A stretch of 57,124 nt of DNA, filler included, from Squatina squatina (lineage: Eukaryota), in NCBI GenBank assembly GCA_031763465.1. It is 3 parts of 3 records of this genome, joined end to end, with 100 filler letters (N's around TTAATTAATTAA, not from the genome) between each part and the next. Parts side by side here need not be neighbours in the genome. Positions count along the whole stretch, not along the records: positions 1 to 26,326 come from JARFOE010000203.1; 2 more parts are not named here. One strand, written 5' to 3'. Of this stretch, positions 2,869 to 45,198 are shown piece after piece. A program made the translations under genes and the position numbers. A model generated the notes under the pieces. That model saw nothing but the letters and a program-made list of their open reading frames with translations, searched no databases and was not told where the DNA came from. Numbering within the stretch: position 1 is the stretch's first letter; every line of letters begins with the position of its first letter.

Positions 2869-3577
2869 ATGAACACTGCTCATCGCCTGATACTATCTGT
2901 GTTGTTGTTCCTTGTTCTGCTCACTTTGGGGTTTGATGTCAGTGAGAACGTATGTTCCACATTGGTTTCTGGAGTTCTGTACAGATCATTCTCCTTACAG
3001 GACATATTCCCTAAAGCCTTGTCTGGCTGTTCCTGGACTATTGAAAATCCAGATCCAACAAAATATTCCATTTATTTAAAATTTCACAAAGAGCAGCAAA
3101 TTTGCTCCCATACCTCTCTGATGGTACTGCAATTGGATCACTACGTTCCGAACCAGACCTGTAGCACATTGGATTACATCGATTATGATGCTGTTAACTT
3201 GTGTGAAACTAGGAATTTGTTTACATTTTTACAGTTTGATAAAGATTTTGTACAATTTTGCTTGACCTCTGAATCACTTTTGAACGAACGCCTAGGGAAA
3301 AATGCAATGGAATTTCAACTCTTGGAGGTTATTTTACTGAATAACGAGAATTCCAGCCAATTCGGCTGTGGAATATTGTGCCATTGGTTTAAGAGCTGCT
3401 TGAGCAACAGAAATCGTCATGAACCATGTGGAATTAATTACTCAGGATGTGCATGCCCCGACGTGCATGAAAATGAGTCCGTCTCAAGCACGGTACTGCC
3501 TTTCATCGAGAATGAGTTCTTAGCATCAAAATTACATTCCAGGAATGTAAATGATTTGAATGTTGCACCAAAAGCTG
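2869..3577 (+). CDS. ADGRB2: ADGRB2 (BAI2) first coding exon: signal peptide and N-terminal extracellular domain
   Basis: Acceptor ctcatttcag ends 2853, ATG at 2869, donor G|gtcagt at 3577/3578 (phase 1). Peptide SGVLYRSFSLQDIFP..SGCSWTIENPDPTKYSIYLKF..LDHY..FTFLQFDKDFVQFCL..NNENSSQF fits recalled human BAI2 better than BAI1 or BAI3. Confidence 0.93.
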
Positions 3578-4606
3578 GTCAGTGTGGGGTTTTTTTTTGT
3601 GCAGCTTTATCGTGANNNNNNNNNNNNNNNNNNNNNNNNNNNNNNNNNNNNNNNNNNNNNNNNNNNNNNNNNNNNNNNNNNNNNNNNNNNNNNNNNNNNN
3701 NNNNNNNNNNNNNNNTACCACAAGTCATAATATTCAATATAAAACTTTTTACAGGATTTTTGCGTCCACCTGAGAGGGCAGATGGGGCCGCATACTGTTT
3801 ATATCTATTTTCAATATGACCTCAAAACGTCTTGGAACTTTGGCGTAACTGTGGAATGAGAACTGTGTGGCGCCGCTTGTTGGGAGAAAGTACCCGCATA
3901 ACTGGAATGTGAACTCACTTGTACGCAGAGCACCTTCCGAGTAAGGGCAAAAGGATCAGGATCACATTATCGGTCCTGTAGCTCCCTGTGGGGGGTGGGG
4001 GGATATCCAATACACTAAGCTGTACAAGGGCCACCATTAAATTTATGCTGAGGCAGGCAGCCATTGTTTTGGTGTTGCTGTTTGATCGGTAAGTATTCTG
4101 AATCAAGTTCTGAAACAATAATAGTAGAAAATCAAGGGAGAGAAAAACTAAAAACAAAAAGAAAATTATTGACCTGGAGATGACAGAGTAGACTGAAGAA
4201 TGTGGTTGAGAACTTGCAACAAACAGTTCAACACCGTAGCTTTGAAATTATGGTAGGGAATAATAGGTATGAAAGCGTTAATAGCCCCGCTGAAATGGCA
4301 GCGAGAGACTTGAAGTGTCCATACCTCTTTCCCACAGCATAATTTCAATGCCTTCACACATATATTAAACAATGAGAATCATGTGACAATCTTCACTGTA
4401 ATTTTTCTGTTTCCTGATTAGCACTAAATTAACTTGCATTTCTTTTTTTTTAGTGGAAGTGAATTCACATAAGGAACAATGATAATGAATAAAATAGAAA
4501 GTTGTGATTGAGTGATGATGAATAGTGCAGTCTGGCTGCTTCTGTGATGAATTTGATGATTTATTATCAAAATGATTAACTCTCGTTTGTTTTATTCTTT
4601 TGCTAG

Positions 4607-4771
4607 GAGATCCTGCTGCTGAAGAGTGGTCTCAGTGGAGTGTGTGCTCACTGACGTGTGGCATGGGGTGGCAGGTGCGAACGAGATCTTGTGTAGCCTC
4701 CCCCTATGGGACTCTGTGCAGCGGTCCGCTAAGGGAAACACGGGTTTGCAATAATACAGCCACATGTCCAG
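4607..4771 (+). CDS. ADGRB2: ADGRB2 exon, thrombospondin type-1 repeat 1
   Basis: 165-nt phase 1-1 exon with ag/gt ends; [55 protein letters not shown]. Confidence 0.95.
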
Positions 4772-6026
4772 GTAGCTTTAGTTGTGTGGTTAAATCTTAC
4801 ACCACAGTATTGATTGTTGTCCTTGAAGTTAACTAAACTGAATGATCAAAATCTGATCCACTCAGAGTAGATTAGGTTAGAATTTGCTGTTGGGGATATT
4901 AGCGAAGCAATACTTAATATTTTCATATAGCGTTCCTCTGCTATTTTAACACAAGTTAAAGTTTAAAGCTAATTTAAAGTTAACCCTCTTAAAATAAATG
5001 TATGTTAACACCTTAGTTAAAATAGTGGACTGAGAATTGTCATATGTAAACATTNNNNNNNNNNNNNNNNNNNNNNNNNNNNNNNNNNNNNNNNNNNNNN
5101 NNNNNNNNNNNNNNNNNNNNNNNNNNNNNNNNNNNNNNNNNNNNNNNNNNNNNNCCCAAACATTTTGTATCGTATTTCCTTTTTGCGATGACATTGTTGA
5201 GGGAACCTCATGATGTTGCATCAAAAGAATGCAACACAGAATTGATTACCTGTTTAAAAATATAATGCACAGTAAACCATGGCCAAATGAGAGATTCAGT
5301 ATACGAGAGACCAATAAATGTACAAACAATTCCCTTTCCAGCACTTAGGGTTTTATGTGAGAATTCAATACAATATACTTCCACATTAATTCCAGCTCTA
5401 TAGAGAAAACTAAAAGGGAGTTCATAACTGGAAATATGTTTACTTGTTTTAGGTGAATTGATGCTCATAGCATCAGGGCTGGAAATCAACTGGTCTACCT
5501 CTGTTGCCTAGTTTTGGCTTTACAAACAGCATGGTCTATCTTGTGCATTAGGTCAAACCACAATCCTCAAGAAGCAGCAAAATTACTAAAACAAGATGAC
5601 TTGACTTCACAAAATGTAGGGGTGGTGGAGAGCTAATTCATACCTATAATTATGTCCAAACTCTGAGCTCCTGACCTCAGCAAAGCTGTCCAGGGAAAGC
5701 TACCGAGAAAGGAGTAAATCCAAGTCAGAGTGAGCAAGACAAACCATTGCAGGTTGCCTGCACCCAACTTGGCTGGTGAATTGTCTTTCGTTTGGGGACA
5801 AATAAGTTTGGAAATGGGGAAGGGAGGGAGGAAAGGACAGTTTTGTTTTTAAAAAAGCTTATCCAGTTTTATGTATGAAAAAACTCTGCAGTATAGCTCA
5901 ACTCATAATACCCCTACCCCTTTCCAAAAAAGGAACAGCGGTAAGACCAATGGTGTATTCCAGGCCTGGCGGTAGTGACGAGAAAACATACAACATGGAA
6001 TTTATGTTCCTCTTATTTGTTGACAG

Positions 6027-6188
6027 TTGAAGGACAGTGGCTGGAGTGGGGACCATGGAACAGGTGCTCAGTAACATGTTCAAATGGAACGCAACAGAGA
6101 ACCCGCAAATGCATTTCGACCCACGGTTGGACAGAATGTAAAGGTCACCAGGCTGAGGCCCGGGACTGCTTCAATCGGGAGTGCTCAA
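6027..6188 (+). CDS. ADGRB2: ADGRB2 exon, thrombospondin type-1 repeat 3
   Basis: 162-nt phase 1-1 exon (tgacag| ... A|gtaatt); VEGQWLEWGPWNRCSVTCSNGTQQRTRKC... Confidence 0.93.
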
Positions 6189-6894
6189 GTAATTTCCTTT
6201 GTTCTTAAATAGAGTAACTTATCACTCTAAACCTCGTTGCTTGATAACAGCCTCCGATTATAACACACACTGCTTCAGACTCTCTATAAAATTGCCACTC
6301 TAAATCTTAGTAATTGACAACAACCTCCATTTATAACTCACCGTGCCTCTGGATGCCTACAAAATAGTGTAGTCTTTCACTCTAAAGCTCTGTGACTGAG
6401 AGCAATTCCTCGGCTGCCTCTGGGTCCCCTTCAATAGAGCAGCCTCTCACTCTAAAGCTCTGTGATTGACACCAGACTCCGATTATAACAAACAGTGCCT
6501 TTGGCTTTTTATGTAATTAAGCAATGATACAATCTTCTCAATGTTATTGTTGGATGCAGCACTCATCACATTGAAACTGTAAGCCACAAAATGCGTAATT
6601 ATAATCACACATAAAACAGCAACAATACCAAAAAAAACTATTATAGTCGGAGAAGAGTTCAAGATGGAATGAGATTCATCGACTGCTCCAGCTTTGCTCC
6701 TACGATTTATCTTATCATCTGAATCCATTTGTGATTACAGCCCCATAACTNNNNNNNNNNNNNNNNNNNNNNNNNNNNNNNNNNNNNNNNNNNNNNNNNN
6801 NNNNNNNNNNNNNNNNNNNNNNNNNNNNNNNNNNNNNNNNNNNNNNNNNNGCACAGACCCCATGAAAAAACTGAGGAGGCGGATGAAAAAGTAA

Positions 6895-7200
6895 GTTGCT
6901 GAAAAATCAAAGTGGCGCACGCACCTCCCCTTTAAATTTTGCCACGTGAGCGGAGTGCGGCCCAGTTCATGATCTGCGAGTCTGGCGCTGACATCGCCTG
7001 CAGCGGCCTCACGGGTCACTGGCCAATTTCCACCGTGGGGTGAAACGGCCCACTGCGCATGGCAATGGTGACATCGCCGGAGATGCAGCGGCCCAGGGTG
7101 CTACCGGTTTTACTGGAGTCGGTAGCGCCCCATCCCCCGCCACTCCGGACGAGAAATGGTTTTGTGCCCTGTTAGCGCCCCCCAGAGGCACTAATGGCAG
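6895..7200. mobile_element. GC-rich non-autonomous DNA transposon fragment, probably Harbinger-related
   Basis: GC/CpG-rich patch sharing the motif gttagcgcc(c/t)cc-gaggg with the element at 23963-24703; no coding similarity seen. Confidence 0.45.
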
Positions 7201-7696
7201 TCACAAACCATGCAAACTTGTCCGTCTTAGTTTATACTACATGAGAGAGTAATTAATCTGTTTGTTATTTGCAGTAACTTCATAAGCACATTCAAAAAGA
7301 ACATGGGTAATTTTAATCCAACCCGCCTGGTGGGAAACTAACGAGATTGGGTCAGCTCCAATTTTTGAAGTCAATGGAGAATAAAATCTGGTGGGGCATA
7401 AAACAGGCAGCCAACCTGATCTCTTCAGTTTGCTGCCAGTGTATTAGGTTTAAATTACCCTTGATGTGTTCACAGTGTTACACACTGTATCTACAGCAAT
7501 TCTTACCTTCATCTCAGAGTCTTACTTTTCTGAGGAGAAAGCTGAGATTTTCTGCGTGTAAAATAGTTGCCTGATTTTGATGATGAATGAAATACAATGG
7601 TCAGATATTTACCTACAATTGTCATTTGGGGAGACTGCTGCTGCTGGTGCATGCAAATCCCTCAAATGAATTAATTACATTTCATCATTTTTTAAG

Positions 7697-7861
7697 CTGA
7701 TGGCAAATGGGGTCCGTGGAATCACTGGAGTTTGTGTTCCAAGACGTGTGACAGTGGCTGGCAACGGCGCTTCCGAATGTGCAAAGGGACAAGTGTCAAA
7801 GGTTACCCATGTGAAGGATCAGGGGAAGAGGTCAGGACATGCAATGTGAAAAGATGCCCAG
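7697..7861 (+). CDS. ADGRB2: ADGRB2 exon, thrombospondin type-1 repeat 4
   Basis: 165-nt phase 1-1 exon (tttaag| ... G|gtagga); [55 protein letters not shown]. Confidence 0.95.
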
Positions 7862-8459
7862 GTAGGAGAATTATATTTCATAATACTTACTTCAATTTAT
7901 GCTTTACTTTCACTTCTTATTTGCTTTCACACACCTCAGCCACTTTAGTTCAAGACGTTCCTCTACCCCCTGGAGGGGAAAGGAGTGAAGCAGACAGAGA
8001 AAAAATTCTGCATAACATCTGGTTCTGGTAGTAACTCCTGATATATCATTAGATTAAGGAGCAGATCTATCTCAACAATGTAGTTGGGTAAACCCTAGGT
8101 CCCGTGGAATCATCCATAAAATCAGAGATATTGGTCTAACACAGTTTGACCTAATGGGGTACTGTTTAGCTGACATTATGATTGCAAAAAACAGAGGTCA
8201 AATTATTTGATTAGAACATCAGTTTAATTATGTCTTTTTTTTGCAATATTCTATGTTCTTCCTGGTTTTCCATTCTCTTGCTCAGACCAGGAAATCTGCT
8301 TCAATGTCCATGTCAGTTGCTCTGCAACCAGCTGCTAATAACTGCATGGCAGCCATCCAGGGTGCCTCTTTCTCCCTTTGACTTTCATTGTCTTTGTCCC
8401 TGCAAAGACATGCCTGACCTCGCTTGGCATCTATCCACAATGGCATGTCTGAAACTGGG

Positions 8460-8796
8460 AGAATGAGAACAGGTTTCGGCCATTTGACCCATCGAACATT
8501 CTTGACTGTTTTATGGGAACTCCATTTTTAAAATCCCAATTGTTTTCCTTTTCTGCAAATATCCTTGCTTGCCAAGTAAGTATCTGTTTCACTCAAACAC
8601 TTCAATTGTTTTGCATCTGGAACATATTTTACAGCCCTTTATGTGAATGATATTTTCCTGGATTTGCTTGAATTCTGATTATATCCCGTTATCTGATTTC
8701 CCTATTGGAAGGCAGAGTCATTCCTGATCTACCCTGTCAATTCATTTCATTATCTTAAATGCTTCAATTAGGTTCCCATGGTAATCCTCCTGTATG
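8460..8796 (-). mobile_element. Decayed CR1 LINE 3' end
   Basis: Resembles the reverse complement of the CR1 3' region at 38874-39406 (ggccattt, tctaccctgtcaattcatttcattatcttaaa...caatta). Confidence 0.55.
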
Positions 8797-10189
8797 NNNN
8801 NNNNNNNNNNNNNNNNNNNNNNNNNNNNNNNNNNNNNNNNNNNNNNNNNNNNNNNNNNNNNNNNNNNNNNNNNNNNNNNNNNNNNNNNNNNNNNNNAACA
8901 GGACCCAAGTTTTGCGCCAAAAATGGCTTAACGCCAGTTTTGCGCCACTTTCATGCGAGAAGTTTTACCACGAATTGGCCGCCCCTATTTAAACCCAAAC
9001 AGATCATTTCATAATGCGTGCTCCTGGCCTGGAACTTTTTGCACTCGTGGCACGCTCACAATTTCCCAGTTTATACACTCCTGGTCGACGAAGCTCCAGG
9101 CCAAGAGCATGCATTCAGAACACTAGCCCTCAACTCACAAATAGCAGTAAAACATATTCACATTACTGTCAAAATGCTGCTGGAACAGATGGTAACAACA
9201 TACAAAATTAACCACATAATGTGATTAATTGTTCAATAAATAACTATTTACTCATCTGTTAAAACACTAAAAAGAACTGTAATTTTAAGAATTGTTGAAA
9301 GGAGTCAAACACTGCCACAGCTGCAACCAGAAAAGATAAATTGTAGGTAGACAGTTGTCAGAGCTGGTACACAGCTCCAGAGGATGGTTATTGTGTATTT
9401 AGCTCTTCAATGCGGCCTCTAAGTGTATCTGTGCTGGTGGGCTTCCAAGATGTAACACCTGGACCAGCTTGAATGGAGAATTGAGCTGGGTTTTATAGAA
9501 AACCCCAAAGCAGATAAGCATTGCCTGTTTGCCAATGAAGTAACCTGATATCTGCACAAAGATGTACTTGCATTTGTTGTGCGCAGCTTCTGAATTCCAA
9601 TGAAAGATGCTGGGGTTTTCCATTGCTGCACTCACCAGCTGCATATTTCTGCCCATTCACTTTAATGGACAGAAAGTTGAGAGCCGACGATTGCAGAAAT
9701 GGAAAACCCTGGCGACTGTTTGGAAGCACCTGACCAAGATACAGGTGCATATTGCAGCTTACTGTGGATGAAAGGCTGCCAATCTACGCAAATCTGACAG
9801 ATGTTAGCTGTCTGGCAACCTCGCTCAGATTGACACCTCGCTCATTATGAGAGTAAAAGTCAACCACAGCAGTACCAACTCATTATTTTCATGAACTTTT
9901 CGTTGTTGAATATGATGGGAGGTTGGCCTTAAGATCAGTTGACTTGTCATGTTAAGTGCTTGGCACTTTCTGGGCTCAAACACAACCTCCCATCTCTTGC
10001 CTCAGCACTGAATAACTCTGAGATCCTAGTTCAAAGCTGGCACACTTCCTTGTGAGTGAGGTGTTACAGTCGCCTGCAGGGAGATGTCTTCAACATAGAT
10101 TACCAGATTGCAAAAACAGACTGTTTGTCAGATGTCTTTCAAAATATACAGTAAAGAAGGTTGGCCCCAGGATACTTGAAGAACACCAA

Positions 10190-11661
10190 GGGCTAGAAAT
10201 TCATAGGTCCATTGCACCTGGGTAGCGCCCGCTGGAGGTGCTCCCAGGACGCTCAACTATTTTTTGAGGCCCGTGCAGCATTAGGGGGATGTTTTGTGGA
10301 AGCATCGAGAGGACACGCCTCCGCAGCCGGCGGTGCACGGTGATGATTACATCAACACCATACGTGCCACACCCTGAGCAACCCGGCATAGAATTCATCC
10401 ATGAAATTGGCAATGGCGCCGGGTGTTTGGAACGACAGCAGGAGCTGTCACTGCACAGTCGACCCCCTGATGCGGCGCCATTACTTAAAGGTGAGTTTTG
10501 CACTCAACTTCCCATAAGATATTATAACAGTGACTTGTGACAAGTGAAGTAACAAATTGCTTGAGTAAGGACTTGAAGGAGGTAACAACGATAATTTACT
10601 AATTGTTTCAGTGATAATTTGGCAGAAAGTCCATTTTGGTCAACTGTTGAAGGGAACTTGTGGGGACTGTCCTGGCAGTGGACTGTCTCCTGTTGCTCCA
10701 TCTTGGGAGGTTCCTGCTTAGAAGGTGGTGGCGGCAGATACATCGTCAAAGGGTGCAAGAGAGAGATGCACAAAGGAGAGGGGTGGGTCAGGCTGCAGCA
10801 GTAATGCAAGCCATTGAACCCACAGGTGCTGAGACCTCTGTAGTGAGGCATAGACAGAGGGCAATGCACAGAGGAAGGGGGAGGCAGCCACAGTCACAAC
10901 CAGGCCCACCAGCTCCAGACCATCAAGATGTGGGTCGATGACAAAAGAGTCACCCCAATGTTGAGAGGAGGCCTTAACCCCGCAAGATATACTGGCAACA
11001 AGTCTCCTACATGAAGTTAACTGAGGAGTAATGTGTGAGAGACGGCTTCATTTCTCAAGGGAGATTATAACAGAGCTGTGCCATCTGCTCGCTCAAGATC
11101 TGGAGGTTCACACAAGGATGAGGACTGCTCTTTCAGTAGCAGTGAAGATCACAATCGCATTAAACTTCTACACAAATGGATCATTTCAGGGAGCCACTGG
11201 AGACTTAGGTAACATTTCACACTTTGCTGTTCATTGGGCCATCAGAGATATCACAGATTCTCTCTAAAGAAAGAGAAGGCAATACATCTCATTCCCCATG
11301 ACTAGTGAGAAGCAGCAGGAGAGCGCAACTGGATTTGTGAGAATCGCTGGATTCCTGATGGTGCAGGGTGCAATCGACTGCACTCACATAGCCATCAGGA
11401 CATCTCATAACAATCCTGAGCGCTGCAGCAACCGTAAGGGGCTCCTGTTTCTCAATGTGCAGTTGGTGTGCGATCACAACAGAATTATTATGGTGGTCAA
11501 TGCCCAGTATCCGGGCAGTGCCCACGACGCATTCATCTTGCGTCAGAGTAGGGTGCCGCAACTGTTTCAGGGACCAAATCCACCATGTGGTTGGTTACTT
11601 GGAGACAAGGGATACCCCTTGCAAACATGGCTGATGACACCCCTTCAGCACCCAAACACTG
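10190..11661 (+). mobile_element. PIF/Harbinger DNA transposon, 5' part with disrupted DDE transposase
   Basis: Starts with a TIR-like GGGCTAGAAATT. Transposase motifs ALSVAVKITIALNFY..GSFQ, VQGAIDCTHIAI, NVQLVCDH, YPGSAHDAFIL and WLLGDKGYPL (DDE_Tnp_4/HARBI1 type) are interrupted by stops; the element runs into an N gap. Confidence 0.92.
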
Positions 11662-12722
11662 NNNNNNNNNNNNNNNNNNNNNNNNNNNNNNNNNNNNNNN
11701 NNNNNNNNNNNNNNNNNNNNNNNNNNNNNNNNNNNNNNNNNNNNNNNNNNNNNNNNNNNNNGATTCTGTTATCTAATTCATTACATTCAGAAGTGACATT
11801 GGATGGTAATTATGTGCATCATATTTGTTCTTTTATGATTTGATCCCAATGTTTCCTTCCAAACTGGAGAGAATTGTTCACACAAAACAAAACCCAAATA
11901 TTTTTATGTCAGCCTTGGCACACTCATCTCTGAGGCAGGAGGTTGTAGGTTCAAGCAACCAACTCATAAATTTGAGCACATTAATCGAGGCTTGCACTTC
12001 AAACACCTTGAGAGTTTGTATAACGTGTTCCTTTTTCATGTTCCCCCATTTTTCCATTCTTCTTGTTTTGCTGAGGTTTATAGTCAGCTTTCTGGTTAAT
12101 TTACAGACAATATTTAACTCTTTTAGATGCAACATTTCATACCATTGTGGGGAGCATATATTCTCCAGAGCAAATTGGGACAAAAAAACACCTGGCTGAA
12201 AATGTTTTAAACAAATTTCCCCAGAAATTAATAACAAAAAACACTACTAACACAAAATGAAAATGGAAAATTACAAAATGGCAAAAAAGCCAATGCCCGT
12301 TTAAGAACTCCATCATACAAAGAGCTTCCCTTTGGGCTACTCCCTATGACCGAAAGGAATGCCCACAGCAAACCCATCCTAACTGGGTGGAAAATGATTC
12401 TCTGCTTAATTGAGATGTGCTGTAATATTTAAATAAAGGTCTCACCTGTTTTTTGTTGATACCACTTTACGTTAACCTAAAAAGCAGGCAGAAAAGTGAC
12501 ACAGATCTAGCAATATAGATCTCCAACTGCCCATTGCATCTCTGCACTGCTAGTCATGGCAACCAGAAAGTTGTCTCTTTAATGATTTTAATTAGTGTCT
12601 TGAACTGGGTGCAAACCTTACATACTATGATTGCTGAAGGAACTGGCAGGACTCTGGGGAGTACAGGGAGGAATGGTATGACTACATTATCTATTTCTGT
12701 TTTTTGTTTCCTTGATGTTTAG

Positions 12723-12829
12723 GCTCAGCAAGCCGCAGATGTTTATTAAATTCTCGTGGAATTGCATTTTGGGGACCACCGAGTTTTGCCAGATGTGTCT
12801 CGCATGATTACAGGCACTTACATGTATCG
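12723..12829 (+). CDS. ADGRB2: ADGRB2 exon, hormone-receptor (HormR) domain second half
   Basis: Not in the ORF track. 107-nt exon (tgtttag| ... TCG|gtaggt) reads [36 protein letters not shown]. Confidence 0.93.
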
Positions 12830-14298: not shown

Positions 14299-14397
14299 AT
14301 CCGCGAGCACCTGGCTAAAGGACAGCGGACCCTGGCAGGAGAGGGCATGTCGCAAGTCATAAGGACTATGCTGGGTTTAATGGAGAGAAAGAATTTC
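14299..14397 (+). CDS. ADGRB2: ADGRB2 GAIN-domain exon, 5' part only (truncated in this sequence)
   Basis: Acceptor ttatttag| followed by [33 protein letters not shown]; homology ends abruptly with no donor site and no gap. Confidence 0.88.
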
Positions 14398-14973
14398 ACC
14401 TTTATTTATTAAGAGAAAAACTATATAGAAAAGATAAATTACAGCAGGGAGAAAAGAGTAAAATTACAAGACCAAATAACAGACCAGGGAGAATGGGATT
14501 GTAGAATTGTGCCCAAATTGAGACTGTATGGACAATAACCTGGGTTTTAAAATGGAGTCCTGTCAAACAAAATGGNNNNNNNNNNNNNNNNNNNNNNNNN
14601 NNNNNNNNNNNNNNNNNNNNNNNNNNNNNNNNNNNNNNNNNNNNNNNNNNNNNNNNNNNNNNNNNNNNNNNNNNNCAATGATTGAGCTGGCACATGTACA
14701 AACTTAAAACTAATAGGTACAGTCCTCTGTGCTGACTAGAATTACATCATTTTTCATTATTTGCAAAATTTGGCAAACAAGAAACAGGTATGCCAAACAG
14801 ATTTAGTAGAAAGTTGTGTCCCTTAATGTTGACACTTAGAAACTTCCCCCAAATCCTTTACAAGCCTCAGGAAACATCACAACACTCAAGTAGCTATCCT
14901 AGACCATGTTGAATCTATTATAAACTATTAGGGAGGCTTTTAGGTACCAATGTTTTATCTCCTAAAGGTAACT

Positions 14974-15154
14974 GAAAATGCTTGAAATACACTGCAGGTT
15001 CATCAACTTCAATAATGACAGAAGACAGATTTACGCTTTCGGTTACAGACCCTTTACCAGACAAGTCAGACCCCAGTTCTGACCAAGGGATACAACTGAA
15101 GTTCTAACTTGTCTTTTCAGGTGCAGACAAATCTGGTGTATATCCAGTATTTTC
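14974..15154. mobile_element. Decayed Penelope-type fold-back (inverted terminal repeat) element
   Basis: Ends gaaaatgcttgaaatacac... and ...gtgtatatccagtattttc are imperfect inverted repeats; internal ttctgaccaagggatacaactgaag resembles the motif at 50147-50172. Confidence 0.55.
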
Positions 15155-15786
15155 AATAACATTGCCCAATTTGACAGCCTAACTTCTCAAAGTAAAATTA
15201 TTAGCCCGAGAGCAAAATTAGGGTCAGTTCAACAGTACCGAACAAATTCACACCAAATTAAAAAAAAATTGGAATCTTGTATATAGGAAAACTATATAAA
15301 AGTCAGACTTATTAAAAATAAATAAGAAAAATTAAATTATTAAAATAATTGAAAGATACATTTTCCAAAATTTGGCACCTGGAAAATATAAATCTAAAAT
15401 TAGATTTTACATATATATTATATAGACATATTGAAAATTATGCAATCAAAAAATGATGCATAAAATCAAATTTTTGAAAATTCTACGTTTTGTTTTAATG
15501 ATACATAAAGCATGGAAAATATACAAGTATAATATAGAATTGTTTTTTAAAAATCAAGAGTTTGTACTGAAGGAGAGCGACAGAGAGGCGCAAGGGCGAC
15601 CTCAGCCAGTCAGGCTGCTGGGAGTCACTGGGAATCAGCAGGAACATTCTGGGGCCTGAGTGACACAAGCCTCCTCCCTCCCGGCCCCAATCCCTGGCGT
15701 TATTAGTGCTCCAAAGACTTTTATTCGGGTGGATAATACCAAGTACGCTCTCGCTATTTGTCCCATTCACAGTTGTTGTTATTTAC

Positions 15787-15870
15787 CGGTCGAACAGCGC
15801 TGGCGAAGGAAAACTCTCCGGCTTCCTTCAAGTCGAGCCAGATCATCGGCATCCGCGGCACGGCCTCCAT
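15787..15870 (-). CDS. PTPN23: PTPN23 (HD-PTP) first coding exon, start of the Bro1 domain
   Basis: Not in the ORF track. 84 nt from aacATGG to CCG|gtaaat read MEAVPRMPMIWLDLKEAGEFSFASAVRP, near-identical to the recalled human N-terminus MEAVPRMPMIWLDLKEAGDFHFQPAVKK. Confidence 0.93.
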
Positions 15871-15990
15871 GTTGAGAGGACTCAGACTGCGACCAACCGG
15901 AAACTGGGTCGCCATTGCCGGGTATTACGTCATGGGACGGTAGGCGAGCATTCTGGGACTTGTAGTCCACATCGTCACCATTCGTTTCCC
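15871..15990 (-). promoter_or_regulatory. PTPN23 CpG-rich housekeeping promoter / 5' UTR
   Basis: ZNF143/THAP11-type motif GACTACAAGTCCCAGAATGC (- strand, 15948-15967), CRE-like TTACGTCA (15925-15932), YY1-like CGCCATT (15910-15916) and ETS CCGGAA (15897-15902), directly upstream of the ATG. Confidence 0.85.
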
Positions 15991-16019
15991 TTTTACAACA
16001 AATATGTTGAATAAAAGGA

Positions 16020-16194
16020 GAAAATGCTGGAAATACTCAGCAGGTCAGGCAGCATTTGTGGTGAGAGAAACGGAGTTAATGTTATATCGACCTGAAACGT
16101 TAAGTCTATCTTTCTCTCTCCAGAGATGTTGCCTGACCTGCTGAGTATTTCCAGTATTTTCTGTTTATATTTTAGATTTCCAGCATTTTGCTTT
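16020..16194. mobile_element. Penelope-type fold-back insertion with 15-bp target-site duplication
   Basis: 36-bp inverted arms at 16020-16055 and 16126-16161; flanking direct repeat tgttgaataaaagga at 16005-16019 and 16195-16209. Confidence 0.8.
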
Positions 16195-17459
16195 TGTTGA
16201 ATAAAAGGACAAGGCGATCATGGACGCTTCATAGGATCAACCCCTGAGAAATCGGGAGCCTTTCAGTCTAATGAACACGTAAACTTTACATTTTATCACA
16301 ATACTTTCAAATCAAATTGACTTTTTAAACCAGGGTACAGTTTGGTTAAAATTCATGCTTAAAGATTTTGTAAATGTATTGTCTCATGCAATATTTTAAT
16401 AAAGGATTTACTCTAACTCTGGACCACTATATTAAAATAACATTATTGGAATCTAAATATTGTTATTAATATTAAATAATACCGTTGTATTAAGCATTGC
16501 AAATCATTTGTTTTATCAGCCGTAACACATACAAGGAGTAGCTTTATTACTACAAGATTCCAGCACACGAGGTATAAGTCAAGGCACGTACTACAGTAAA
16601 GTATTCCATGTTTTAATGTAATTTCAGTTTTTTTCACTGTAAAGCCATGTGGGAAAATTCACTAACGCACTAGTTTCTAAGCTAATAGTAATTCTATTGA
16701 GATTTTGCATTAATCACACAGCTATTTGAAAGAAAATCCCTGGTAAATGAGACATCTGTGCCTGCTGCATTTTATGCCATTAGTTGCAAAACTAAATAAA
16801 TAGTCTGTGTTCTCTGACTACTAGATGAATTGATTAAATGCCACATTTTCTGTCGACATGTTCATGATCTTGTGAGGTGCAATGTGTTATGATTCCACTG
16901 GTACTGTATAACAGTAATGAAGATGGCTATAATCAATAGGAACTCTGACTTCACACGGCACTAAGATATGATTTATTAGATTGTAGATGCTGATTATTCA
17001 GTCTTGGGCATAACAAGCATGCACAGCTGTTCTGATTTAGGAAGGCAAGAATATTGAACCATTTTCAGTGTGACATCATTAATGATCATGCTGTAGTGTG
17101 TGAAAAATCCTCCCTATGGTGAATAGTCAAAACCATAGATTAACACATGGCTCCTTCAATCTTAGCTAGCTGTGTACATCCAGTTTATTTGAAAAGCACA
17201 ACCAAATAGAGAGAACCTTTTTTGGGAGCTGTGATTCAGCCCAGTATCTCTGAATGCACTATTCTGGAAATTTATGGGTGTGTTAACAATGGTAAATAGC
17301 TAGCAAACAAACATTTTCTCATTTAAAAAAGTTAACTTTTGAAGTCAGAATGAAAATGAATGATGCTGATGTAGAGTGTAATGTGGCAGAGTTCCCTGGG
17401 CTGGAACAATATTCTCTAGCTCGAGCTTTTTTAAAAACCTTTTCTACACCTTCTCCCTA

Positions 17460-17950
17460 TTGGAACTTTATAGCACAGAGGAAGGACCATCATCTACGGG
17501 CTGGCTCTCTGCTAGAGTAATCCCAGACTAATCCCACTGCCCCGTGCTCTCTGCTGGAGCAATTCCAGACTAATCCCACTGCCCCATGCTCTCTGCTAGA
17601 GAAATTCCAGACTAATCCCATTGCCCCATGCTCTCTGCTGGAGAAATTCCAGACTAATCCCATTGCCCCATGCTCTCTGCTGGAGCAATTCCAGACTAAT
17701 CCCACTGCCCTGTGCTCTCTGCTGGAACAATCCCAGACTAATCCCACCGCCTCCCCCAACCCCACCCACTGTGCTCGCCCCCTGTAGTCTAGTATCTTCC
17801 TTTACTCCAAATCTTTAATGACTCTTCCCTTAAAAAATGTAATGGCCTCAACTATTCGCTGTGGGGAAGTGTTCCATGCTCCAAGTGAGTAAAGGCATTT
17901 ATCCTAACTTCTCTCTTCACTCTCTTGGGAGCAATTTAATACTGATAGCC
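17460..17950 (-). mobile_element. Decayed CR1 LINE 3' end hosting a minisatellite
   Basis: tagcacagaggaaggaccat...ggctctctgc corresponds to the reverse complement of the CR1 3' end at 39300-39400. Confidence 0.65.
17505..17753. repeat. 42-bp minisatellite, 6 copies
   Basis: Unit ctctctgctggagcaattccagactaatcccactgccccatg; produces the 14-aa periodicity in the 17490-17765 ORF. Confidence 0.93.
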
Positions 17951-18389
17951 CTTCGTCATTACAATTCAAGACCATTCTCCCCATCTCTTCTCTTTCCCTC
18001 CTGGTTTATCAATTTCTTTTTTTTTTAAATTGCTCTCAATTTCACCTTTACAGGCTCTGCCATTTCAGGGGGTACTTTAAGAAATTAATGGGGAGTGATG
18101 CTTCTTTTAAAAGATGGAATAACAGCCATAAAAATAAAAGCATAACTGGCAGCAAAAGAGAGGCAATGGGCAGGAATCAGTCTGAGCATGTAGCAGGAAA
18201 AAAAAATCACAAGAGCAAAAGGGGTTTGGGGGCTGGGGTGCGGTGGAGAAGGATCTAATGTCAGGTCAGTTACTTGTCAATTTCTGATTTAGATTTTTCC
18301 TGCTCATTTAAAAGAAATTGCACAGGATTTGTTTAGGATTGCTACACAAAGGTCCAGAAGGATTTCCACACGGGTGAAAAAAATCCCCA

Positions 18390-18635
18390 AAGCAACAATT
18401 TGCATTTATCAACGCCTTTAGCATAATAAAACATCCCAAGAAGCTTCACAGACAAAATCTGACATCAAGTCACATAAGGAGCTTTCAGAACAGGTAGAGG
18501 CAGGTTTTAAGGAGCATCTTAAAAGGAGGAGAGAGAGGTAGAGAGGTTTAGGGTGGGAATTACAAAGCTTAGGGCCCAGGCACGGCCACCAACAGTGGAG
18601 CGATTAAAATCGGGGATGCTCAAAAGGTCAGAATT
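18390..18635 (-). mobile_element. L2-clade LINE 3' end
   Basis: LLSIPDFNRSTVGGRA..LSTSLSSF matches the L2 ORF2 C-terminus; tail ttgcattta...aacatcccaag..gcttcaca is shared with 51585-51822. Confidence 0.8.
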
Positions 18636-19099
18636 NNNNNNNNNNNNNNNNNNNNNNNNNNNNNNNNNNNNNNNNNNNNNNNNNNNNNNNNNNNNNNNNN
18701 NNNNNNNNNNNNNNNNNNNNNNNNNNNNNNNNNNNTTGGCCTTGGATGGGGTGCTGCGCATATTCACCAGAATGATATGAAATGGCCAACTCCTGTTCCT
18801 ATTTTCCATGGCAAAAGGGTTTTGGGGGAGTGAATGTTACCAGGGATCTCTCGCTTGTCCATTTTAATGTGGTTGGAAGAGCTGTGCACCCCTGTCAAAG
18901 CAGGGTAGGCACTGTTCACACTACTCCCAATCTTTGGTCCTCCCAACATTTTGGGGAATGATTATTTGAACCACCAAAGGCCAGGGAAAACTCTGCGCTG
19001 GATGTTCATTTCGGTCTTGCTGCTGACCTGTACTGCTTCGAATCAAAAGACGGACGCCTGATCCTTAACAAATTGTTTTCCAAAAGGTCTAAATTAAAA

Positions 19100-19700
19100 T
19101 CGGGCAGATTTCATTGCCACGGAATCGGTACGCAGAGTTTAAAAACGCTTGCGTCTGGCGTATATTCTGGGCTGACGCTCGGAGACCATCGTCATTGTGA
19201 AAGGTGATTGATTGCATTGTAGCCCCTGCTCGATTTAATCCCCCCCCCACCCCGCCCAAACTCCCCGCCGTTGCTGGGGTTTCAGTTGGTGAGCACTGGG
19301 TCCAATCCAGCGTGAGCAGCGCCACAGTCTAGGCCATTTGCAAAGAGATTTGCTGGGGGCGGGGGAGAGAATCGATCCGGCGGCGCGATCCAGAGCCCAG
19401 ATAGGAGACGACTGCGAGCGATAGTGGCTTTGGCAGCTCGCCGCCGAGCAGTGAACGGACGCCGGCTAACGTGCTCGCATTGCTGGCGGTGCGTTCACTT
19501 GCACTGAGCTCCACGCGGCAAAGAAGTTGCGCGAAGTGACAGAGGTGGGCAACTGAAGAGAAAAAGACATCGATCATCAGACTAAATGTGGTCTGAAAGG
19601 ATTTACATTTTTTTTTCCATTAAAGAGCTTTTCCGTTATGGTAGCGTGCGCGCGGTCCCTCCGGTGATCCGGGGAGTGTGGGGGTCTCGTCTGCTCATGA
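19100..19700 (+). promoter_or_regulatory. Intronic CpG-island-like candidate internal promoter of ADGRB2
   Basis: Dense CpG in AT-rich surroundings, with CCAAT at 19302-19306 and GC box GGGGCGGGG at 19356-19364; same contig as, and about 160 bp upstream of, the GPS exon. Confidence 0.6.
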
Positions 19701-19860
19701 TTGATGTTACAACACTTGCCTGATGTTAATGTCTGTTGCTTTCCCATTTCCTTCTCTTTATCACTGAACAGTGCTCAGCTGATCGCTCATTTAAGCAGAA
19801 TGAAAGCAGGCTGCTGTCTGATCTCTCATGTCTCTCTCTCCCTCCCTCTCTTTATCGCAG

Positions 19861-19987
19861 GGACTCTGGTCCAGGGAGCTGGGACCCTCAGGGCTGTGAA
19901 ACAGTGCATACACAAGCAGCACATACTAAATGTATCTGTAATCAACTGGCTACTTTCGCCATTTTAGCCCAGCAACCGAGAGATTCG
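19861..19987 (+). CDS. ADGRB2: ADGRB2 GPS-motif exon
   Basis: 127-nt exon (tatcgcag| ... TCG|gtgagt); [42 protein letters not shown], with the BAI2-like TQAAHT. Confidence 0.93.
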
Positions 19988-22324
19988 GTGAGTATTGTAA
20001 AAAAAAATAAAATGCCTGATTGCATTTCACACCTACAGGCTGTTTTGGAATTCATTTATGATTTTATTTTCTCTTCTGCTTCGAAGATTACAGTAAAATG
20101 TAATTGACGTGTCTTTTAAAANNNNNNNNNNNNNNNNNNNNNNNNNNNNNNNNNNNNNNNNNNNNNNNNNNNNNNNNNNNNNNNNNNNNNNNNNNNNNNN
20201 NNNNNNNNNNNNNNNNNNNNNCCAGAGTGCAAACCGCCTATAATACCATCTTTCACAGAATGCATTTTATGAAACAGAAGCAATGAAATCTCCCCGGTGA
20301 GCGCAGAACGACACAGCACATGGTTTGGAAGAATGGGCAGAGGACTGTACTTTAAATCAGAGTTTTCTATTAAGATAAGTGAACGTGTCCTGACCACATA
20401 AATTGGCTAATTTACGACTTGGGCCATAATACAGAGAAAATGGCCGTTTATCAAGACTTTGGAGAAATGCCGATAGGAACTGAGCTGAATAGAAACTCTC
20501 CTGCCTTAATGGCTAAATTGAAATTTACTGGGCTTATCAAGCTCCAAGGCAAGATCCTAAAGATGAGCAAATAATCACACTACAGCAACTCTGAAGACAT
20601 GAACTACTTTGAAATCTTGGGCCGACATTCCTGTTTGCCTGTCTTAGTAAAATAGAGTAGGCATAAATGATGAACGGTGGAATGTCAGAAGAAAGCACCA
20701 ACGGATTAATCATTAATGTTTAACATGCCTCAGAGCATTCCGACCTGTCAAAAAGCTAGAGTAAAACATGCTAACAAAATACCACCTGTTGCATGCTGTA
20801 CCTTTTCATGACATATAAGTTTTACCTGCAGACACGAGATTTAAGTGCAGTGATGTGACCTGTGGAAGTTTCTTTCTGCAATGCATTCACTCTCCCATTA
20901 TGGCATATTATAATGCAATTTTCAGAACTTAGCTATTTTCACTTCCAAACTTTACTTGCTACAGTCTTGATTAAGTCTTGTCCCTTCCACCAGATTCCTT
21001 ACGAGATTAACGCTGTTTGTGGTGTATTGGCAAAGTTTATTCCTTGGTCCCATCAAAAATGTGCGCCAGTCATTCCACGATGATTGGCTGATATATTTTC
21101 TAATAAAATGGCATTCATAACAGTTGGCATTTAGGAAGGCAGATGCTTATGTGATTCTGCCTGCATTTCACTAAAATAGTTGTAAAGCGTGTTTTTTACC
21201 TTTCAGATACCTGAGGAAAACTGGCCCCTTATCGCTACCAAGCCATCTACTTATCTCAAAATATCTATATTTATCACTGTTTCGCTCTGTTAGCACTGTT
21301 TATTAAAAGATGCAGAGTGTTCCATTGCTGTTGTGCTCTTTGATATGGCCCTGCTAATGCAAAACAGATCACAGTAGGAACAAAATCATATCTAATACCT
21401 TGTGGTTCTCAAGGACTGGTTTATTGAGGAACCCTGGTGTATTGCAATAAATATGTACAATACAAAGACCTGCATAACAAGTAAGACACACTATGATAGC
21501 TGTTATGCTAATATCACTCAGTGCACGGAGTAGTGTAATTAAATCCAATGTGAATAGTAGCATATTATACAAAGAAGATCATTGGTTTGATAAAAACAAA
21601 GTAACACGGAANNNNNNNNNNNNNNNNNNNNNNNNNNNNNNNNNNNNNNNNNNNNNNNNNNNNNNNNNNNNNNNNNNNNNNNNNNNNNNNNNNNNNNNNN
21701 NNNNNNNNNNNAAGACACAAATAATGTTACAAGAACAAATCTTCAGGTTTCACTCAGCAACACAAACCCCCAAGGTGACAGATACGCAGGCAACAGTACT
21801 GGGCACTTTTCCCACTCTAGTAACCCTGACAGAATAATATGTACATTTGTGCAATACAACTAAAGTTAACAAGTCATTCTTAGGACCGTGCCGTTTAGAG
21901 CCCTCACAAAAATTCATGAAACCTGCTGCATGCTTCATGACGATTTTAATCTGTGAACATTAGCAACAGTACAAAACACATTCTGGCTAATTAGTTTGCT
22001 AATGCCTATATGGAAGTCTAGCTCCTGACACTCTATTACACGCACAGTGGCTAGATCCAAGGTTCATTCAGTCTCATTAACTGCTACTGGATATCATTAT
22101 TAGGACACTGATGATGCTGTATTGCAGTGTGTCCTATCTATTCAAGGATGAGCAATTTTGGGCACAACTGCTTTGGAATTATCACTGCAGGAAAAACAGC
22201 AGTAAGGTTGTTTCAGATGAAATCNNNNNNNNNNNNNNNNNNNNNNNNNNNNNNNNNNNNNNNNNNNNNNNNNNNNNNNNNNNNNNNNNNNNNNNNNNNN
22301 NNNNNNNNNNNNNNNNNNNNNNNN

Positions 22325-23350
22325 TTCATAAAGGAGGTGGTCACAGAACTCTGCCACCTCCTGGAACCAGACTTGCAGCCTCAGAGCAGGGCAACAACAG
22401 CACTGCCAGTGGCCCTTAAAGTTACCGTGGCCCTCAATTTGTTCACCATTGGATCCTTCCAGTCTGGAGCAGGAGACATAGCTGACATCTCCCATAGGAC
22501 GTCCATTGCTGCAATCGGGAGATCACAGAGACTCTGTACTCCAGGAGAAGGGAGAAGGGATTTCATTGTCTTCTCTCTGAACAGAGAAAGAGGAGCGTGT
22601 ATGTGGCTTTGCCAGGATATTGGGCTTCCCCACGGTGCAGAGCACCATCAACTGCACACATGTGGCTTTACAGGCACCGCATATCAATCCTGAGATGTAT
22701 CGCAACCGCAAAGGCTACCACTCACTTAATGTGCAGTTGGTGTGTGACCACGCCCAGCACATCATGATGGTGAATGCCCGGTATCCTGGCAGCAGTCATG
22801 GTGCATTCATGCTGTGCCAGTCCGCTGTGCCAGCAATCTTCCAGGCACCACGTCAAACCTGAGGGTGGTTGCTTGGAGACAAGGGCTATCAGCTCTACAC
22901 CTGGCTGATGACTCCCCTCCACAACCCACCACTCGTAGCCAGCACTCATATAATGAGAGCCATGCTGTCACGAGAAACCTTATTGAGCAGATCATTGAGG
23001 TTCTGAAACAATGGTTTCGCTGCCTTAACCGCTCGGGAGGAGCCCTCCAGTAGACACCAGAGTGGGTGTCCCATTACTTGGTGATCTGCTGCATCCTCCA
23101 CAACTTGGCCAATATGAGGGCGCAGCCCTTGCCACCACGGGTTCCATGACCACATCAGGAGGAGGAGGAGGAGGAAGAGGCGGAGGAGGAGCAGGAGGAA
23201 GGAAGGAGGCAGGCAGCAGATCCACGATCCAGATCGGCTATCCGTGAGTGCCTCATCAGAATCTGGTTCCACAGATCCCCATTGCCCATTTCCCCACCTC
23301 TGTCACAGAACAACACAGCATGCTCTTGGATACAAAGCTGAAATGAGAGC
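22325..23350 (+). mobile_element. PIF/Harbinger transposase pseudogene
   Basis: ALPVALKVTVALNLF..GSFQ, NRKGYHSLNVQLVCDH, YPGSSH, WLLGDKGY, YNESHAVTRNLIEQ and CCILHNLA occur across several frames with stops, followed by a GAG-rich acidic tail. Confidence 0.92.
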
Positions 23351-23962: not shown

Positions 23963-24703
23963 GGGGGAGAAATTCAGCTCTGATTGCGCCCAGTTAGCGC
24001 CTCCGAGGGGCGCTAATGTGGTGATAATGGACAAAATGTCACCAGGACGAGGTCATCTCGCCTCCTGGGGAATTCAACTGGGGTGTAAAGGCCTTTGTCT
24101 TTGTGCAGGGAATTCCGCAACAGGTCGGAGCGTGATGTTATAAAGACACGCGCCGACCCTCACTGCGCAGCTGTGTTCCGATTGCGTGCCGCAGGCGGAA
24201 TTCACCCATGGGATGCGGCCGCAGCGACAGGGAAACTATCGCTGCAATGGCCCTCTTAAAGGGGAGCACCTGTGCGCCTGCGGCCGGCATCTTTATTTGT
24301 CGGCCGACTCTCATGTCAGCCGACTGATGGCGGCCCACGGCCGGATCAGGCCACCATCCCCTCTCCTGGCACGCCGACTGGGGCGCCGTCAGGATGGCTG
24401 GCGGCCCTCCTCTTCAAGGGTTTGACGTCAGCACGCAGCGACGCTGGCACAGCGCCGTTGACGTCGCTGGCATGGCACTGACGCCACACCAGTGTCGTCC
24501 CTGGCTGGATACCCCAGTTTCACCTGGGAGCGAGGCTGGCATCGCTGTGCCTCACCCCCACCCCGGAATGCTAAATTCTGCGTTGGGTGGGGGGGATTCG
24601 GGAGCCGGCGAGAAAAATGCTGCCTACTGCCCCGGAAGCACCCGGCCCAAATTGTGAGCCCCAAATATTCTGCAGCAGATGGGAGGAACCCCAAATTCAC
24701 TCC
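23963..24703. mobile_element. Non-autonomous Harbinger-like element (MITE-like)
   Basis: GC-rich 740 bp bounded by ggggagaaatt and aaattcactcc (imperfect TIRs resembling those at 10190 and 55722); no credible ORF. Confidence 0.6.
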
Positions 24704-24901: not shown

Positions 24902-25052
24902 GGTGTGTGTATGATGACAGCAGCTTTTCTGCATTTCTTTTTCCTCTCCTCCTTCTGTTGGGTATTGACAGAAGCTTGGCAGTCCTATCTTGCCGTGCTG
25001 GGAAAAGTTAGGACCAGGCTGATAAGGAAACGCTTTCTCTGCCTTGGCTGGG
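24902..25052 (+). CDS. ADGRB2: ADGRB2 7TM exon (TM3, ICL2, start of TM4)
   Basis: Not in the ORF track in this frame. 151-nt exon (ttctccag| ... G|gtatgt) reads [51 protein letters not shown]. Confidence 0.95.
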
Positions 25053-25659
25053 GTATGTGACTCTCTTTATATTTAGAATGCATATCATATGTGATTTGCA
25101 AAGGAACTGTTAAAATTCTAAACTCAGAGCAAATGGTTCGGATCTGACCAAATACATTGGATGTTTCTTACTATTAANNNNNNNNNNNNNNNNNNNNNNN
25201 NNNNNNNNNNNNNNNNNNNNNNNNNNNNNNNNNNNNNNNNNNNNNNNNNNNNNNNNNNNNNNNNNNNNNNNNNNNNNCCCTTGGCAGATGATTAAATGTA
25301 TAAGTAATCATATAATTGTGAGGAAAGATCTGCTGCGGTTTTTAAAAGTATAAACTATGAAAGTCTTATTAAAGGTTAAACATGTAGGCCGAGCCATAGT
25401 GTGGTGCTTAGGCCTTTTATTGGACAAACTATTGATGAGAAATAAGTGGTTATTGATCATCCTATTAACGTGTTACCCAAAAAACTAGTAACTATTAACA
25501 TCACAGGCAGTTGTGATCTCTGAATACAGTTTGAAGAGTCAAAATAAACACCATCCTCCCAAAGATAAAAGAATAAAAATACATATGGTGGCAAAAACCC
25601 TGTTGCTTTTTTGATGGTTTTCACCCTATGTTCACCAATTCTCTCTCTAAGGTACTTAT

Positions 25660-43992: not shown

Positions 43993-44340
43993 GAGAAAAG
44001 GAGGATTTAATGATCACACAGCAACCCCCAGCAGTTAATATTACTGAGGGAGATCCTGTCACAATGACATGTTCGTGGAACAACAGCCAGAGTGAGAGTG
44101 TTAGAGTGGACTGGTTAAAGGACAACGTCAACATTTTTACAAAAAACAAACATAACATGCACAAATCCAAAGCAGGACAATAATATCACACCCACCAACA
44201 TTTTCGGTAAGGGTAGACCTTCTGGACATGCATTCTCTGTGGTGTTTAATGCTATGGTGCAGTTAAACCTTACCGTGGTCCAGCTTATCTGTGTCCCCAG
44301 GTCTCTGAAGTATAACGTAATGATGGAGGAGAGCGCAAGG
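43993..44340 (+). pseudogene. Decayed immunoglobulin V-set exon (CD28H/TMIGD2- or NCR3-like)
   Basis: Phase-1 acceptor ttaccttcacag|; [39 protein letters not shown] has the B-strand Cys and C-strand Trp. Stop at 44181-44183; an in-frame AYLC lies 74 codons after the first Cys, behind further stops. Confidence 0.7.
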
Positions 44341-44499
44341 TTCTTAATTACTTTGGTTTCTTTCAGTAGTGGACCACCTATGAACAGGAAAGACCAGGAA
44401 CAACATTATGTTTATATCATCACTTCGGTAAAGGCAGAGTGAACATTTATTGCATTACAGTAAGCTGCCAAAATAAATCAAGATTAGAAAAATCTTGGT

Positions 44500-44760: not shown

Positions 44761-44852
44761 CTAAATAGAATTTTAATAAATCATATTTCATAATTTTACT
44801 GTTTAGTACTTGCATCTTAATTCATAACTAAATTTGACCTGATCAACATTAC

Positions 44853-45198
44853 CTGTTGTATCTCTGCTGAAGCATTCCTAGTGTAACTGTTGTATTCATT
44901 TATCAATGACCTGACGTAACAGTTCACCCTCACTGCAGTGCTGTGGATCCGTTGCCACCTATTTTTTTCGAGCTTATAGAAAATCTTGGACAGCTCTGTG
45001 GTGATTGTCAATGCTCTCTTCAGCAGTGCCTGCAGGCTGCCTTGTAAATTTTGCTGAGATGTTATGACAAGCTCGTTGTGTCCATCACCTTCCACACTGA
45101 TGGGTTTTGATTGAAGTATGCTCATGCACTCACATTCTGCCATCAATCTCAAGTCCTCCATCCAACGCTGCACAGAATCCATTTCCATTAGATGCATG
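44853..45198 (-). CDS. INSC: Inscuteable (spindle orientation adaptor) exon containing the LGN-binding segment
   Basis: 346-nt exon (ttttctag| ... CAG|gtaatg); MHLMEMDSVQRWMEDLRLMAECECMSILQSKPIS matches recalled human LHLMQVDSVQRWMEDLKLMTECECMCVLQAKPIS. Confidence 0.95.

Follow-up and report, generated by a model that had tools for sequence, protein, structure and literature searches.

The window analysed here, 57,124 nucleotides of Squatina squatina DNA (assembly GCA_031763465.1) in three stretches joined end to end, carries exons of a gene which, judged by the names of its homologs, its domain order and its placement within an elasmobranch clade, is an ADGRB (BAI) adhesion GPCR and the shark ortholog of ADGRB2, as an earlier note on this DNA had proposed. 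The domains follow one another in the order AGRB_N, three TSP_1 repeats (TSRs), hormone-receptor domain (HormR), GAIN subdomain A, GPS and 7tm_2; HormR and GAIN-A were recognised by tblastn and the others by Pfam. Identity of the window exons to the sawshark (Pristiophorus) ortholog is 96-100% where the match stays inside the exon. The exons on either side of the GPS exon are as follows.

2869..3579, + strand: ADGRB2 first coding exon (AGRB_N region); Pfam PF19188, E 3e-60; 96% to Pristiophorus ADGRB2-like; end approximate
4606..4770, + strand: TSR1 exon; Pfam TSP_1; 100% to Pristiophorus ADGRB2 isoform X3; borders approximate
6026..6190, + strand: TSR3 exon; Pfam and match to the sawshark ortholog; borders approximate
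7699..7860, + strand: TSR4 exon; Pfam and match to the sawshark ortholog; borders approximate
12722..12829, + strand: hormone-receptor-domain exon; 97% to sawshark isoform X3 residues 493-529; borders approximate
14299..14397, + strand: first GAIN subdomain A exon; 97% to sawshark isoform X3 residues 529-561; borders approximate
24902..25054, + strand: 7TM exon (TM3-TM4 region); Pfam 7tm_2, E 6.9e-13, and sawshark match; borders approximate

Other exons of the gene lie farther along the same contig (C203) or on small contigs; TSR2 is on contig C13 (96% identity), and several GAIN and 7TM exons are located on contigs other than those of the window. Annotated full-length ADGRB2 orthologs of relatives are about 1400-1540 aa long. 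Sawshark isoform X3 has a 14-residue insert (residues about 777-790) between the GPS exon and the preceding exon; this insert was not found in the window or in the other loci searched, and isoform X5 lacks it.

In a homolog search, 14 of 15 matches were named ADGRB2 or ADGRB2-like, all 14 from sharks or rays, and one was unnamed; among the best 120 matches to the GAIN region of the sawfish ortholog, 119 were named B2 and one was unnamed. The GPS exon is identical to that of a Heptranchias ADGRB2-like protein at 41 of 42 residues and to that of Pristiophorus at 40 of 42. A quick 34-row tree built after masking of the GPS residues, with a single B3 outgroup and with the window filling 25% of the columns, places the window in the elasmobranch clade with an SH-aLRT of 99. 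A B3-like locus lies separately in this genome on contig C4, where its GAIN exon matches human BAI3, and a further separate locus, on contig C13, is B1-like and is called ADGRB1 by elimination. One result counts against the assignment to ADGRB2: the GPS exon taken alone matches human BAI3 (E 1.2e-13) better than BAI2 (E 3.5e-11). Taken whole, the sawfish ortholog matches human BAI2 slightly better than BAI3. A collagen neighbour was sought as a synteny marker, with no Gly-X-Y runs found in loci L041 and L042; this genome's own B3 GPS exon was not found, the region being gapped, and Rfam gave 0 matches over 14676-21611.

Sequences of other kinds are present in the same DNA. The first coding exon of PTPN23 (15787-15870, - strand; 28 codons from the ATG, with a GTAAAT donor; E 1.6e-9 to PDB 5CRV) lies within single-copy CpG-rich DNA between ADGRB2 exons. 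As this exon stands amid those of ADGRB2, and as the TSR2 exon of ADGRB2 is on C13, the arrangement points to misplaced contigs having been interleaved in the scaffold at its 100-N gaps; the alternative is a genuinely nested gene. The third stretch contains an exon of Inscuteable (INSC; 44820-45212, - strand; Pfam INSC_LBD and Insc_C), and there is a weak TECR_N match, below the Pfam cut-off, at 44118-44405 on the - strand. Remnants of a DDE_Tnp_4 transposase are found in ADGRB2 introns (11268-11660 and 22581-22859), and a long degenerate tandem repeat with long open frames on both strands occupies about 5100-9900 of locus L041 (C203, downstream of ADGRB2).

The GPS exon and its tripeptide

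The features of the GPS exon are as follows.

19861..19987, + strand: ADGRB2 GPS exon, coding for the last part of GAIN subdomain B and for the Stachel strand; begins in phase 2 and ends in phase 0; 42 residues
19931..19939, + strand: C-x-C motif of the GPS disulfides; from translation, alignment and Pfam
19943..19951, + strand: GPS tripeptide Gln-Leu-Ala (CAA CTG GCT), replacing His-X-Ser/Thr; gap-free alignment to 8OEK and 4DLO
19952..19969, + strand: Stachel (tethered-agonist) core TFAILA; its Thr stands at +2, one residue beyond the nucleophile position

A pyrimidine-rich AG acceptor (19859-60) precedes the exon and a GTGAGT donor (19988) follows it; in a profile search the exon matched the Pfam GPS family (PF01825) with an E of 6.9e-12, above the cut-off. 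Codons 19931-19972 read TGT ATC TGT AAT CAA CTG GCT ACT TTC GCC ATT TTA GCC CAG, with Gln at 19943-45, Leu at 19946-48, Ala at 19949-51, Thr at 19952-54 and Phe at 19955-57. Alignment to human BAI2 (8OEK, CQHLSTFAVLA) and BAI3 (4DLO, CDRLSTFAILA) needs no gaps, which confirms the human motifs given in the earlier note and fixes the register in which that note had read these codons. The His at GPS position -2 is absent in shark ADGRB2, with Gln (CAA) instead, and the Ser/Thr at +1 is also absent, with Ala (GCT) instead. In cleaving receptors the His is positioned by a Phe at S10.49 that stacks on it (PMC13062082). The S10.49 residue in this genome is Val, not Phe, in the preceding ADGRB2 exon on contig C463853, an exon placed in ADGRB2 by its identity to shark ADGRB2. 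The Stachel consensus F/Y-A/G-V/I-L (PMC13470171) is matched by TFAILA, and the Gly-Cys motif, a Gly before the conserved Cys, is kept as PQGC. An AlphaFold model of a stingray ortholog, built from a 32-row alignment, had a mean pLDDT of 46.7, with values <50 across most of GAIN-B; the GAIN fold of shark ADGRB2 is predicted from homology to 8OEK alone (sawfish ortholog, E 1.6e-168).

Human ADGRB2/BAI2 (HormR-GAIN, 8OEK) is an ortholog with a gap-free GPS alignment, and it shares with the shark receptor the lack of Phe at S10.49 and, as predicted for the shark, a resistance to cleavage. It differs in having His-Leu-Ser where the shark has Gln-Leu-Ala, Ser876 where the shark has Val, and Asn893 where the shark keeps the Gly before Cys. 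Despite its HLS motif the human receptor was uncleaved in the crystal and has been reported to undergo slow cleavage of 2-4%, with a half-life of about 100 days (PMC13062082). ADGRB3 and ADGRB1 (RLS; 4DLO) have no His base and carry the same TFAILA strand as the shark receptor, and B3 crystallised uncleaved; they differ in keeping Ser at +1, and the Arg and Ser of B3 are reported to be fully conserved. The B1-like GPS exon of this genome (contig C13, locus L039 1442-1353, - strand) reads RLS-RFAILA, with Arg (AGG) at +2 as against Thr in the BAI records collected here; the exon adjoins an assembly gap, and the Arg may be an error. Cleavage-competent GAIN domains (ADGRL1/L3, ADGRG1) share the W..GC and C-x-C framework and a hydrophobic Stachel core but carry His at -2 together with Thr/Ser at +1 and Phe at S10.49, all three of which are missing in shark ADGRB2.

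Spread and history of the site

Departures from the canonical site have been counted before. Among 13,611 vertebrate aGPCR sequences, about 30.6% lack H and/or S/T (PMC13470171), and ADGRB2 orthologs have been reported to carry His (31.6%), Arg (30.8%), Gln (28.0%) or Lys (8.4%) at -2 and Ala (18.6%) at +1 (PMC13062082). The ortholog set behind the latter figures is described as 148 mammalian sequences in the results text of that source and as 608 vertebrate sequences in its methods and peer-review file; Ala at +1 occurs in 0 of the 92 mammal records of our tally, which fits the vertebrate reading. Lineage mapping of -2 and +1 in ADGRB2 was not found in print in a literature search that had most subscription journals outside it. 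The searchable supplements of PMC13062082 contain neither 'shark' nor 'QLA', and the available text of a paper on vertebrate aGPCR evolution (PMC8584163) has no mention of 'cleavage'.

Our tally was drawn from three homolog searches, one representative search and two cluster look-ups; its records include isoforms and are top matches to shark or marsupial queries rather than a random sample. The comparison across sharks, rays and bony vertebrates that the earlier note had called for found QLA in 12 of 17 elasmobranch species, HLA (His without a nucleophile; stingrays and mantas) in 4 and RLG in 1, with Ser/Thr at +1 in 0/17. By record (n=51), elasmobranchs comprise 21 QLA-TF, 9 QLA-TI, 11 RLG and 7 HLA, with 3 lacking a GPS; Ser/Thr at +1 is found in 0 of the 48 that have a GPS, and S10.49 is Val in 48/48. 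Bird records (n=126) are QLA in 122 cases, RLA in 2 and QLT in 2. Elsewhere, the motif is QIS in sturgeons and paddlefish (9/10, the other without a GPS), QLS in coelacanths (3/3), caecilians (9/9), monotremes (15/15) and marsupials (12/12), and HLS-TY in turtles (3/3). The 65 placental records consist of 59 HLS, 4 RLS, 1 RPS and 1 HPS, and the five named teleost records of 3 RIS, 1 KIS and 1 QPS. No named ADGRB2 record that was scored has Phe at S10.49, the residue being Ile, Ser or Thr outside elasmobranchs, and Thr occupies +2 in every one of these records. Bird ADGRB2 thus resembles that of the shark in its QLA-TF motif and in a Met at +15 (126/126); it differs in having Thr at S10.49 and an Ala at +1 of probably separate origin.

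Several lineages depart from these patterns. Carpet sharks (Chiloscyllium, Hemiscyllium, Stegostoma), 4 of the 17 elasmobranch species, have QLA-TIAILA, in which the conserved Stachel Phe is replaced by Ile. ADGRB2 of Narcine is divergent near the site (RLG-TFAIFA), with 24/42 identity to the window exon compared with 35-41 in other elasmobranchs. Two records from little penguins (Eudyptula) have QLT, a hydroxyl at +1 without His, and Pro at -1 is found in single bat, ground-squirrel and halosaur records.

Resistance to GPS cleavage is an already known and published property of ADGRB2, and QLA, which most of the examined sharks and birds have in common, is ordinary for this gene. The surprise implied in the earlier note does not survive this comparison: human ADGRB2 resists cleavage despite HLS, and both Gln at -2 and Ala at +1 had already been counted among orthologs (PMC13062082).

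We reconstructed the history of the two positions by Sankoff parsimony on 54 genus-level tips, with a textbook topology. Position -2 takes 10 changes with Gln at the root. Forcing His costs 13 steps when it is imposed on the elasmobranch and bony-vertebrate ancestors, 12 for the ancestors of amniotes and of mammals, and 11, a one-step margin, for those of therians and of sauropsids. Hence, Gln is likely to be ancestral at -2, and His, which is a single-base change from Gln, appears to have been gained three times, in myliobatiform rays, turtles and placental mammals. On this parsimony the human HLS is likely to be a secondary look-alike. We hold a late gain of His to be probable rather than firm because the reconstruction is without chimaeras, lungfish, gar, frogs, salamanders, squamates, crocodilians, Afrotheria and Xenarthra and because two of the margins are of one step. 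For +1, Ser and Ala tie as the root state within ADGRB2 (Ser 3, Ala 3); Ser is favoured by its presence in BAI3 and in the B1-like exon of this genome, and with a Ser root Ala would have arisen in elasmobranchs and separately in birds.

Cleavage and signalling of the shark receptor

With no His base, no Ser nucleophile and no His-positioning Phe, shark ADGRB2 has very likely lost GPS autoproteolysis. The earlier description of this receptor as naturally cleavage-dead is supported as a likely property but not as a surprising one; its resistance to cleavage is predicted from the three missing residues and by analogy with human B2. The shark receptor with its Gln-Leu-Ala site would probably stay one uncut chain and signal as a full-length adhesion receptor whose N-terminal fragment is not shed at the GPS, a reading to which we assign a probability of about 0.8. 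We infer that the ADGRB2 lineage lost efficient autoproteolysis before the split of sharks and bony vertebrates, a loss that would have left -2 and +1 free to drift. It is also possible that the constancy of QLA in elasmobranchs and birds reflects constraint instead of drift.

The earlier note pointed out that the tethered-agonist core TFAILA is intact. This is weak evidence for use of the agonist, because the same residues form the last strand of the GAIN domain and because the core Phe is Ile in the carpet sharks; TFAILA was probably retained chiefly as the last beta-strand of the GAIN fold. In cultured neurons BAI3 is reported to need GPCR activity but neither its tethered agonist nor its GAIN domain, and it still functions when the Stachel is mutated or the GAIN domain deleted (PMC13322242). 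Judging from BAI1 and BAI3, the shark receptor may be activated by the binding of extracellular ligands and by direct coupling to its 7TM domain; reversible exposure of the Stachel could take part but would not be required. Counting against this Stachel-independent view, a BAI2 CTF construct has been reported to be constitutively active (PMC13062082).

It could be argued that the motif is an error of assembly or the decay of a pseudogene. The assembly is fragmented, with several ADGRB2 exons on other contigs, and the codons are without raw-read coverage from this animal: the sampled reads (~6% of the run) gave 0 over the site, which lies in the first of the three stretches (1-26326) with no mismatch to contig C203 around it, and the best contig aligned here ends at 19904, short of the motif. 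An assembly error is nonetheless unlikely, because contigs of two other organisms cross the site and have the same Gln-Leu-Ala codons save for one T>C, in the Ala codon, that is synonymous, and because 12 of the 17 elasmobranch species carry the same motif. Given in addition the close identity of the window exons to the sawshark and the full-length orthologs of relatives, we consider error and pseudogene decay together to be extremely improbable. A receptor still cut near the GPS in vivo, whether by Thr +2 acting as nucleophile, by strain-driven hydrolysis or by another protease, is a more serious alternative. Its supports are the universal Thr +2 in the named records and, from PMC13062082, the residual, strain-driven cleavage that persists in SEA domains after Ser-to-Ala replacement of the nucleophile, the presence of CTF-sized BAI fragments in mouse brain and the mention of additional N-terminal processing of human B1, B2 and B3; one reviewer of that paper held that every BAI is cleaved inefficiently in vivo. 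The Thr is an unlikely substitute nucleophile, though, because human B2 and B3 have it together with Ser at +1 and yet remain uncleaved as purified proteins. At the shark site base, nucleophile and Phe are all missing, and bands in brain can also arise from internal promoters. On balance, we regard cutting of this kind as improbable.

A further alternative, which is compatible with an uncut full-length receptor, is that the 7TM part is also made without its ectodomain, from a promoter just before the GPS exon.

19101..19700, no strand: single-copy CpG island, candidate internal promoter; GC 0.56, CpG obs/exp 1.03, 48 CpG

In a transcript from this candidate promoter, Met +15, at the beginning of the next exon, would serve as the start codon and would give a short receptor lacking the Stachel, similar to the intron-17 isoforms of ADGRB1. 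We consider such a promoter possible because a single-copy CpG island precedes the exon and because Met +15 is placed as in the ADGRB1 isoform. About 160 bases separate the end of the island from the GPS exon downstream, and both lie on one gap-free segment (18736-20121). The island has 1 candidate copy in the genome, compared with 8869 for a CpG-rich high-copy repeat of the window (24001-24600) used as a control, and island-like tiles are rare (10 of 239 across the window). Single-copy CpG-rich patches appear to mark gene starts here, since the other patch tested is the PTPN23 first exon. Met is found at +15 in 48/48 elasmobranch, 3/3 turtle and 3/3 coelacanth records as well as in all birds, and the next exon (contig C388720) reads AGC ATG G, a good initiation context with A at -3 and G at +4. 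There are precedents in mammalian ADGRB1, in which a promoter in intron 17, at the homologous position just upstream of the GPS exon, drives an isoform from Met +15 as demonstrated by long reads, chromatin marks and a reporter assay (PMC11711277), and in mouse Bai3, for which a CTF promoter is reported (PMC6667449). In contrast to the experimentally shown ADGRB1 promoter, the shark ADGRB2 counterpart is a candidate, marked by the CpG island and the Met alone. Against it, Met +15 is replaced by Leu in 92/92 mammal and 9/9 caecilian records and could be a mere hydrophobic linker residue, no island is present in the sequenced parts near the ADGRB1-like GPS exon, a gapped region, and the scaffold appears to contain misplaced contigs. 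The comparison with other organisms covers 19614 onward, and the upstream and downstream introns are about equally conserved; with 15 changes in 247 bases upstream and 7 in 133 downstream, from one other organism, we rejected conservation of the upstream intron as evidence for a promoter. All in all, the internal promoter is a tentative proposal that we think may well not hold.

Two related candidates were also rejected. A coding mini-exon in the island would depend on one in-frame ATG-donor pair only, with a weak donor at 19664, and two short ray and shark records proposed as CTF isoforms proved to be one that starts in the HormR domain and one unannotated hypothetical protein.

Combining these elements, one could suppose that ADGRB2 was never self-cleaving, that His was gained thrice on a dead scaffold, once without a nucleophile, so that the human HLS is a look-alike, and that sharks, possibly along with birds, obtain a receptor without ectodomain by starting at Met +15 from the CpG-island promoter rather than by proteolysis. 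On this view the promoter in ADGRB1 intron 17 would be a feature of ancestral BAI genes that predates the split of sharks and bony vertebrates, and mammals would have lost the ADGRB2 start codon. As a joint proposal this is unlikely, and we put it forward as speculation.

In summary, the reading that we prefer remains that of an uncut, full-length shark receptor, and the shark result confirms the published point that ADGRB2 does not need GPS autoproteolysis. A late gain of His, if correct, would explain why human BAI2 combines a canonical-looking motif with hardly any cleavage. Should the CpG island before the GPS exon be a promoter, the CTF-sized BAI bands in brain could be transcriptional in origin across jawed vertebrates rather than products of cutting. 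The QLA receptors of sharks and birds and the HLA receptors of stingrays, in which His stands beside an Ala with no hydroxyl at +1 to activate, offer natural controls on the dependence of BAI receptors on cleavage or a tethered agonist, and the Phe-to-Ile change of carpet sharks is a direct test of the Stachel.
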